A stretch of 64,000 nt of DNA from Pseudomonadota bacterium. Lineage in GTDB: Bacteria > Pseudomonadota > Alphaproteobacteria > Sphingomonadales > CAKZYD01. Both the position numbers and the translations under genes were made by a program. Positions 22,898-23,018 of the stretch are shown piece after piece. Where the stretch lies: the NCBI GenBank assembly GCA_049324415.1, contig JBMOOS010000015.1:12491-76490 (forward strand), given 5' to 3'. The notes under the pieces are model-generated. The model worked only from the letters and a program-made list of their open reading frames with translations, was not told where the DNA came from and did no database searches. How positions within the stretch are numbered: the first letter of the stretch is position 1; every line of letters starts with the position of its first letter.

Positions 22898-23018
22898 CTA
22901 GTGGTCCGCCCCAAACGGATAAATCCATCCGTTTGGGAAAAGTGGACCACTAAGTTATTGAATCTGTAGTGCGATTTCTCCAACAGATGGAGACCATCTG
23001 TCGAAATCGCACCACTAG
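22898..23018 (+). repeat. 121-nt CTAGTGGT...ACCACTAG double-hairpin intergenic element, copy 3
   Basis: Perfect 8-nt terminal inverted repeats, two long imperfect hairpins and an AT-rich linker. Lies between divergent lptD and pepA. Confidence 0.9.

Follow-up and report, generated by a model that had tools for sequence, protein, structure and literature searches.

A CTAG-bounded double-hairpin repeat of an alphaproteobacterial genome as a probable IS630-type miniature transposable element

What kind of element is a sequence of 121 nt, predicted to fold into two long hairpins, that recurs in a single orientation next to the housekeeping genes of a bacterium? The question is raised by a stretch of 64,000 nt, hereafter the window, from a member of the Sphingomonadales (Alphaproteobacteria; assembly GCA_049324415.1, contig JBMOOS010000015.1, positions 12,491 to 76,490), in which one such copy lies at 22898 to 23018. 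The original prediction had considered three readings equally good: a TA-targeting (IS630/mariner-type) transposable element of the miniature inverted-repeat kind (MITE), an element of the repetitive extragenic palindromic (REP) or bacterial interspersed mosaic element (BIME) kind, and a structured RNA. We observe that the first is favored by CTAG sequences at the ends of the copies, by the stop codons of the flanking genes queD and prs, and by termini resembling those of IS630-family insertion sequences (IS), and that the other two do not equal it. It is likely that the repeats are IS630-type MITEs within a widespread alphaproteobacterial group of double-hairpin elements.

The repeat in the window and in other genomes

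Searching all 64 kb with sensitive blastn, a repeat search, and a covariance model with filters off, we recovered four copies, at 1181 to 1370, 11019 to 11139, 22898 to 23018, and 36930 to 37050, all on the plus strand, and no further full or partial copy. A 20-mer from the first hairpin (module A) occurs four times in the window, always on the plus strand, where 0.01 occurrences per window are expected by chance, and the second hairpin (module B) is found three times. Each of the three canonical copies has a length of exactly 121 nt; they contain no indels and differ pairwise at 10, 9, and 9 positions, in agreement with the copy number, shared orientation, length, and degree of difference (about 9 to 10 positions) described previously.

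Copy 22898 to 23018 opens with a CTAG (22898 to 22901) whose TA would be the duplicated target, and the element proper begins GTGGTCCG. Module A (22899 to 22952, plus strand), bounded by CTAG and CTAA, has the terminal inverted repeat TAGTGGTCCGCCCCAAACGGAT as its outer arm and an imperfect complement of this sequence as its inner arm. It is followed by an AT-rich linker, AGTTATTGAATCT (22953 to 22965, plus strand), which contains a GANTC site and is homologous to the linker AGATCAATAGCTT of relatives in other genomes, and by module B (22966 to 23015, plus strand), whose outer, 3′ arm forms the terminal inverted repeat on the right; the right CTAG is read from the sequence at 23015 to 23018. 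The two ends are related to each other: by hand alignment, 15 of 20 positions match between the left end and the reverse-complemented right end, and module B, when reverse-complemented, gives an alignment with module A that scores 51, compared with 10 ± 5.6 for shuffles. CTAG is present at both ends in three of the four copies, while the fourth, at 36930, has a mutated left end. The 8-nt terminal inverted repeat previously ascribed to the element is perfect in copy 22898 to 23018 only; the copy at 36930 begins CCAG and the copy at 11019 ends GCACTAG.

The GC content of the element is 47 to 51%, against 64.8% for the window. Each copy is predicted to form two long hairpins (dG of −58 to −66 kcal/mol, z of −7.6 to −11), with no shuffle folding as well and with the opposite strand equally stable. 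Among the canonical copies 14 positions vary, of which 5 are unpaired in every copy and the rest are one-sided stem changes, which contradicts the earlier statement that the differences fall mostly in loops or bulges. No compensatory change is found among the window copies alone, and because their stem changes are one-sided, these copies by themselves give no covariation signal. With the covariance model (R1), the canonical copies score 111 to 118 bits (111 for copy 22898 to 23018) and segment 1181 to 1299 scores 57. The 190-nt copy, formerly termed an extended variant, is resolved as a mosaic, consisting of a diverged complete element with module A, linker, and a variant module B′ (1181 to 1299, plus strand) and of an extra linker with a third hairpin module, GTGGTGAAAATCAAAC...GTTTGATTTTCGCCAC (1300 to 1370, plus strand).

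Since the left end approximates the reverse complement of the right end, one degenerate pattern, CTAGTGGTSCGNNNCNAACNGAT, could be written for both termini and searched in GTDB representative genomes. It was found at no fewer than (at least) 84 loci, with a rough chance expectation of about 35, and our statistics on relatives derive from the 8-kb loci around the pattern matches listed. Almost all of these matches lie in Alphaproteobacteria, several to many per genome, and their hosts include Nitratireductor, Rhizobium, Shinella, Lichenihabitans, Thalassobaculaceae, Kiloniellaceae, Stellaceae, Rhodospirillaceae, Defluviicoccus, and Rhodopila. Most of the relatives listed are complete elements of 121 to 122 nt with the layout CTAG, hairpin, linker of about 13 nt, hairpin, CTAG, and the window copies, when reverse-complemented, align with them end to end, linker included. 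Full-length double-hairpin members in these loci mostly score above 90 bits, and truncated or variant members score down to about 27. The element is thus not confined to this genome, and since its relatives are common in Alphaproteobacteria, it represents a new case of an ordinary type of genomic repeat. It was rightly called unrecognized insofar as no named family matched it; it nevertheless belongs to a widespread alphaproteobacterial group with the architecture of the RIME and Bru-RS repeats considered below.

Other forms among the relatives include solo single hairpins, hybrids with other repeats, and truncated copies, and the internal module boundaries often read YTAR. One lineage of metagenome-assembled genomes (MAGs) has the layout CTAG-hairpin-CTAA, a 10-nt linker, and TTAG-hairpin-CTAG, and locus L155 contains a solo hairpin of 52 nt with CTAG on both sides. 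In four loci from uncultured alphaproteobacterial MAGs (L119, L124, L139, and L154), a different, GC-rich palindromic repeat, GTCGCCCCCGCGAAAGCGGGGG..., is joined to the family's left terminus and first half-hairpin, and these are hybrids with another repeat family. With respect to exact words, a 20-mer gave a single chance match in the GTDB representatives, inside a coding region, a 26-mer gave none in metagenomes, and an 18-mer gave 17 chance matches in JGI metagenomes plus one true relative (L097), on a contig that begins inside a related element, in which the first 23 nt are shared before the sequences diverge. When the window element and two relatives were compared by blastn with 72,556 plasmids, rhizobial plasmids included, nothing meaningful was returned, and a full-text literature search for the terminal sequences returned unrelated primers only.

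Target sites and a probable link to IS630-family transposases

The copy at 1181 to 1370 lies between the convergent genes queD (816 to 1184, plus strand) and prs (1367 to 2368, minus strand), and it shares a stop codon with each of them, the TAG of its left CTAG being the queD stop and the TAG read on the minus strand from its right, terminal CTAG being the prs stop. For this copy the earlier description of the repeats as strictly intergenic has to be relaxed. Both proteins are full-length, matching their Pfam models up to the final residues, and the arrangement is that expected from insertion into a single CTAG shared by two overlapping stop codons, with duplication of its core. Of 86 termini counted in the relatives, 29 adjoin a reading frame that is open for 100 codons or more and stops at the TAG of the terminus (200 codons or more in 21 of these), compared with 19.6% by the same measure for all CTAGs in the same loci, and the CTAG of the relative in L097 is the stop codon of a 523-aa gene.

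The terminal ~23 nt of the elements match the exact ends of IS630-family insertion sequences. In locus L133 the pattern falls at the exact end of a 1,065-bp IS that has CTAG on both sides and imperfect inverted ends, and whose 334-aa open reading frame (ORF) carries HTH_32, HTH_29, HTH_23, and DDE_3 (PF13358) domains, which are characteristic of IS630-family transposases. In loci L145 and L177, from Caballeronia and Paraburkholderia, the pattern is the end of an IS630-like transposase gene; here 21 of 23 positions at the DNA end agree with the window terminus, and the product finishes ...KPFIWTAKASDILAKV..., which we take to be a C-terminus typical of IS630-family transposases. A tblastn search with the L133 transposase found 669 plasmid records, with most of the matches listed annotated as "IS630 family transposase." Annotated plasmid IS630 elements have ends that open in the same manner, TA followed by GTGGTCTGAG... 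and TA followed by GTGTACTGAG...; the two inspected, from Roseomonas and Caballeronia, end TA followed by GTGGTCTGAGTTAGAAG and TA followed by GTGTACTGAGTTAGAAG, respectively. Ends of the form TA followed by GTGGTC... are common to the window element and to L133, L145, L177, and L188.

The target site is also in line with what is said of this family: Tenzen and Ohtsubo reportedly found in 1991 that IS630 inserts at the TA in 5′-CTAG-3′, and Fournier et al. are said to have found in 1993 that IS870 of Agrobacterium requires a CTAG target. As in IS630-family elements and the MITEs derived from them, of which RUP of Streptococcus pneumoniae is an example, the TA target lies within CTAG, and the window element is short (121 nt), non-coding, and dispersed in multiple copies (four in 64 kb). 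It differs from the IS630 family itself in having no transposase gene and in having its termini doubled to palindromes of ~50 bp that are kept by compensatory change.

If the repeats are IS630-type MITEs, a DDE transposase of the IS630 family, with its gene at some other place in the genome, would recognize their terminal ~20 to 23 bp, which at both ends would read TA followed by GTGGTSCGnnnCnAACnGAT. It would excise the element and reinsert it at the TA of a CTAG site with duplication of the TA, so that every copy would come to be bounded by CTAG, and the ends of the cognate transposase gene of this host would be expected to read TA followed by GTGGTCCGCCCCAAACGGAT. We infer both the TA duplication and the presence of such a transposase in this genome. 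An imperfect inverted copy of itself follows each terminus, making each end a palindrome of ~50 bp, and the whole looks like two solo hairpin units, each bounded by YTAR, and a conserved linker, mobilized as one unit. The simplest reading of its origin is that two solo hairpin MITEs lying a few bases apart may later have been mobilized jointly via their outer ends. Because insertions would regenerate CTAG at both ends, later insertions could pile up into mosaics such as copy 1181 to 1370 and the loci L114 and L182, where Bru-RS-like modules are involved. Since the canonical copies are only 92 to 93% alike, such activity would not be recent. Effects on neighboring genes, for example, through RNA hairpins in transcripts, would be a by-product.

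Hairpin pairing and the competing explanations

Conservation of the two folds was examined in 23 diverse members (alignment A2, with the window copies reverse-complemented), whose sequences are mutually related. Paired cells amount to 93.0% across these members, compared with 33 to 45% when the partners are slid by 1 to 3 columns, and 17 of 40 pairs are changed on both sides (111 cells). Furthermore, none of 500 shuffles reaches the observed covariation score, and RNAalifold agrees. The covariation check thus supports both folds across the 23 members, and the earlier view that both are retained rests on this family-wide compensatory change, none of which is visible when the window copies are taken by themselves. 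Members scarcely vary in the outermost ~12 nt of either end. Hairpin 1 has a T-C mismatch near the base of its stem and hairpin 2 a G-A mismatch, both of them conserved (14 of the 23 sequences in each case).

Several observations weigh against the IS630 interpretation. Covariation links the arms of each hairpin, whereas one hairpin departs from the other in several lineages (e.g., AACGGATGG versus AACGCTTGG), so that a model of four identical transposase binding sites fails to explain the pairing; judging from the aligned sequences, the hairpin pairing itself seems to be selected, and not merely four copies of one binding site. On the strand that corresponds to the minus strand of the window, G-U type pairs outnumber A-C type pairs by 32 to 10, which hints weakly at a single-stranded form specific to one strand, and no more than weakly because the sequences are related. 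An IS630 transposase is absent from the 64-kb window and, with the exception of L133, from the 84 related 8-kb loci listed, and the IS630 elements with matching ends come from an unclassified MAG and from Betaproteobacteria, not from this host. In addition, queries made of joined flanks found no empty site or presence/absence polymorphism in all fetched loci, a search in which the closest genome is distant and the same-species contigs stop at the element. Lastly, IS5-family elements such as IS711 duplicate TA at YTAR as well (PMC2266754), and the target site alone therefore cannot separate the IS5 and IS630 families.

This last point leads to the alternative of a MITE mobilized by an IS5-family (IS427/IS711-like) transposase, which would insert at YTAR or CTAG and duplicate either TA or the whole tetranucleotide, two outcomes that the window copies cannot tell apart. 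In its favor, IS711 is associated with the architecturally similar Bru-RS repeats in addition to duplicating TA at YTAR (PMC2266754, PMC3163539), and in one Brucella locus (L272, 434 to 938; CAEMYB010000066.1) a DDE_Tnp_1 gene (IS5-family, IS711-like) adjoins half of a Bru-RS-like hairpin (858 to 898), which fits that reported association (PMC2266754). We nevertheless regard it as improbable: the terminal 20 to 23 nt match the ends of elements of the IS630 family, whose members have DDE_3 instead of DDE_Tnp_1, this sequence was encountered at no IS5-family end, and the literature has IS711 inserting into Bru-RS, with no description of the two sharing their ends.

The covariation within hairpins, which suggests that a folded single strand matters, and the one-strand excess of G-U type pairs would also suit a REP/BIME-like mosaic, in which the hairpins are single-stranded DNA substrates of a REP-associated tyrosine transposase (RAYT; HUH-Y1) and spread during replication. 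Like REP, BIME, and REPIN repeats, the element is extragenic and built of modular palindromic units with conserved hairpin complementarity, and these units are reshuffled in copy 1181 to 1370 and in the solo and hybrid forms among the relatives. Such spread would explain a leading-strand uniformity, and GC skew is indeed positive across the whole window, which implies that all four copies run the same way on the leading strand; the chance probability of one orientation in four of four copies is, however, 0.125. REPs are characterized, in the definition available from PMC3733652, as imperfect palindromes of 20 to 40 bp with a conserved GTAG or CGTC tag, whereas the hairpins of the element measure 50 to 54 nt, begin GTGG inside the stem, and show neither of these tags. 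Two-fold inverted symmetry with CTAG at both ends agrees with a DDE element of the cut-and-paste type, the termini equal IS630 ends, and neither a RAYT gene nor any transposase domain was detected among the window genes scanned against Pfam. A mosaic of this kind is accorded very little credence here.

A structured RNA, whether a cis-regulatory leader, a small RNA, or an mRNA-stabilizing or -terminating element, would have both hairpins functioning in the transcript, in keeping with the very stable predicted folds (z down to −11), the strong compensatory changes across the family, and the position of three copies in the 5′ regions of housekeeping genes; transcription has moreover been reported for RIME and other rhizobial repeats (PMC3738161). 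Yet the Rfam search that had been called for gave 0 matches in the window at gathering thresholds and, at a permissive threshold, only chance-level hits to eukaryotic miRNA and snoRNA families (E of 0.8 to 4.4). Both strands fold equally well, the copies occupy divergent as well as convergent intergenic regions between functionally unrelated genes, and a scan found no promoter-like or terminator-like site within the element. The 23 relatives with callable neighbors show no orientation preference towards the flanking genes (7 convergent, 6 co-directional in each sense, and 4 divergent), and the most conserved part is the outermost ~12 nt, which match transposon ends. The random orientation to neighboring genes and the lack of an Rfam match make a dedicated RNA function unlikely, and we attach hardly any weight to this explanation.

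Three further candidates were rejected: an integron attC or CRISPR origin (no arrays, with copies 10 to 14 kb apart), an intrinsic terminator (no T-run, and none found within the element by the scan), and a coding ORF (a frame without homologues and of atypical GC content). One minus-strand frame of 39 codons is open through all three canonical copies, and no homologue of it was found, with no protein in a database of 5.8 billion sequences sharing three 5-residue words with it; a gene caller could extend spurious ORFs through such a frame.

Genomic setting and comparison with known repeats

The window consists of alphaproteobacterial housekeeping DNA, including queD, prs, rpsF-rpsR-rplI, fabD-fabG-acpP-fabF, lptD, pepA-holC, glyQ, and chemotaxis and flagellar genes. 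Copy 11019 to 11139 (plus strand) lies between rpsF (10500 to 10856, minus strand) and fabD (ATG at 11153, plus strand), copy 22898 to 23018 between lptD (20645 to 22837, minus strand) and pepA (23156 to 24652, plus strand), and copy 36930 to 37050 (plus strand) between a ygfZ/CAF17-like gene (minus strand) and an amidohydrolase gene (37133 to 38476, plus strand). The observation that three of the four copies lie upstream of plus-strand genes is therefore to be read with the fact that all three sit between divergent gene pairs. All four copies fall within the first 37 kb; the last 27 kb (37051 to 64000) hold none and encode the amidohydrolase, LysE-type transporters, and then a chemotaxis and flagellar cluster (CheW, CheB, FliG, FlgD, and MotA-like).

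The best relative of the window's PepA among 185,579 species representatives is 73% identical and comes from a MAG labeled Sphingomonadales, followed by relatives of about 60% identity from Kiloniellales and Rhodospirillales. The same species is present in the Logan assembly of SRR32167790 and in JGI metagenome 3300073099 (DNA identity of 99.9 to 100%), and its contigs end inside the element, one (L002) beginning at window position 22940 and another (L273) stopping 19 nt into copy 11019. Breaks of this kind in two independent short-read assemblies are the usual signature of a repeat present in many copies, and they lend indirect support to the earlier suggestion of many copies per genome.

GAGAT follows both copy 11019 and copy 36930 (11139 to 11155 and 37050 to 37056). 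At the right end of the former, the terminal G and the following GAG form a Shine-Dalgarno-like GGAG (11139 to 11142), 11 nt before the fabD ATG. A decayed member of 39 bits (L065, 2862 to 2984; MAG Proteobacteria BP5.bin88, JAJXWP010000013.1) likewise ends ...CTGGAGG, 13 nt before the ATG of a pepA gene; it lies directly upstream of pepA in the same relative position as copy 22898 to 23018, with the two PepA proteins only 59% identical, and may reflect either a separate insertion or a very ancient one. A GC-rich hairpin resembling a terminator, TCGGGGCTTTCCCTTGGCCCCGA, is found between the window element and the start of pepA, at 23077 to 23099 (plus strand); its T tail is weak, and its position should fall in the leader of pepA.

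Among named repeats, Osteras, Stanley, and Finan reportedly described in 1995 the Rhizobium-specific intergenic mosaic elements RIME1 and RIME2, of 108 to 109 bp with two large palindromes, RIME1 having first been described, it is said, in the chvI-chvG spacer of Rhizobium species. Going by this description, the element is similar in its length of ~110 to 120 nt, its two large palindromes, and its intergenic, mosaic occurrence in Alphaproteobacteria; it differs in that its host lies outside the Rhizobiaceae and that family members occur in many alphaproteobacterial orders. In Sinorhizobium meliloti 2011, 209 RIME copies are annotated (PMC3738161). Protein matches to a ChvI query lay in frameshifted assemblies with short spacers, and a genome scan gave 80 Rhizobiales chvI loci, with S. 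meliloti and NGR234 not among them. The family model matched these loci once, in Agrobacterium larrymoorei, whose chvI-chvG spacer (L194, 3246 to 3406) contains two CTAG-bounded palindromic modules and a 12-nt linker, and no family member was found in the chvI-exoS spacers of Ensifer sp. B1-9 and Sinorhizobium sp. 8-89.

Bru-RS1 and Bru-RS2 of Brucella are palindromic repeats of 103 to 105 bp that act as IS711 hot spots (Halling & Bricker 1994). We identify as Bru-RS1, by its location, size, and IS711 association, a 105-nt Brucella repeat just downstream of bp26 (L271, 10826 to 10930), which has two hairpins, an internal CTAA, a T-rich linker, and TTAG...CTAG bounds. Its two-hairpin layout is that of the element, but its terminal and stem sequences differ (TAGAGCGCG... 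versus TAGTGGTCCG...), and it scores 18 to 20 bits with the family model, compared with 111 to 118 for the canonical window copies. By sequence comparison, Bru-RS is a sister family, separate in sequence and with a shared architecture. Bru-RS-like sequences of 71 to 76% identity to the Brucella repeat also occur in uncultured alphaproteobacterial MAGs (L114, 3188 to 3258; L182, 7285 to 7354; L161, 3811 to 3907; and L103, about 4504 to 4616). In L114 and L182 they abut a family member with an overlap of ~4 nt at the terminal CTAG, which the two apparently share.

Chen and Shapiro are said to have described in 2003 the Caulobacter repeats CIR1 to CIR4, intergenic inverted repeats of >100 bp associated with GANTC (CcrM) sites. 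On that description, the likeness extends to size, inverted repeats, intergenic position, and alphaproteobacterial host, and the window element has GAATC in its linker and in module B. The Correia elements (NEMIS/CREE) of Neisseria are MITEs of ~100 to 150 bp with terminal inverted repeats and TA duplication, abundant between genes and often co-transcribed. They differ in their unrelated host group and in having single 26-bp inverted repeats, with ends that are not palindromic.

More tentatively, RIME, Bru-RS, and possibly CIR may belong together with the present elements in a large alphaproteobacterial group, not previously described as one, of CTAG-bounded double-hairpin MITEs mobilized by IS630-family transposases, in which complementarity of the ends is selected and TAG stop codons preceded by C are preferred as safe landing sites. 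To our knowledge, RIME and Bru-RS, Rhizobiales repeats of the 1990s, have never been tied to a transposase, and the shared CTAG ends together with IS630-like termini provide a testable transposase hypothesis for both. For annotation, the implication is that these repeats should receive masking as MITEs, and that small-RNA or ORF calls on them should be avoided; short-read assemblies break at them, and they adjoin housekeeping genes, whose stop codons they provide in one case. A small question of mechanism follows from the within-hairpin covariation, namely why a DDE transposon should need palindromic ends. If the grouping is true, selected complementarity would imply either a folded single-stranded or cruciform transposition intermediate or a selected role in RNA.

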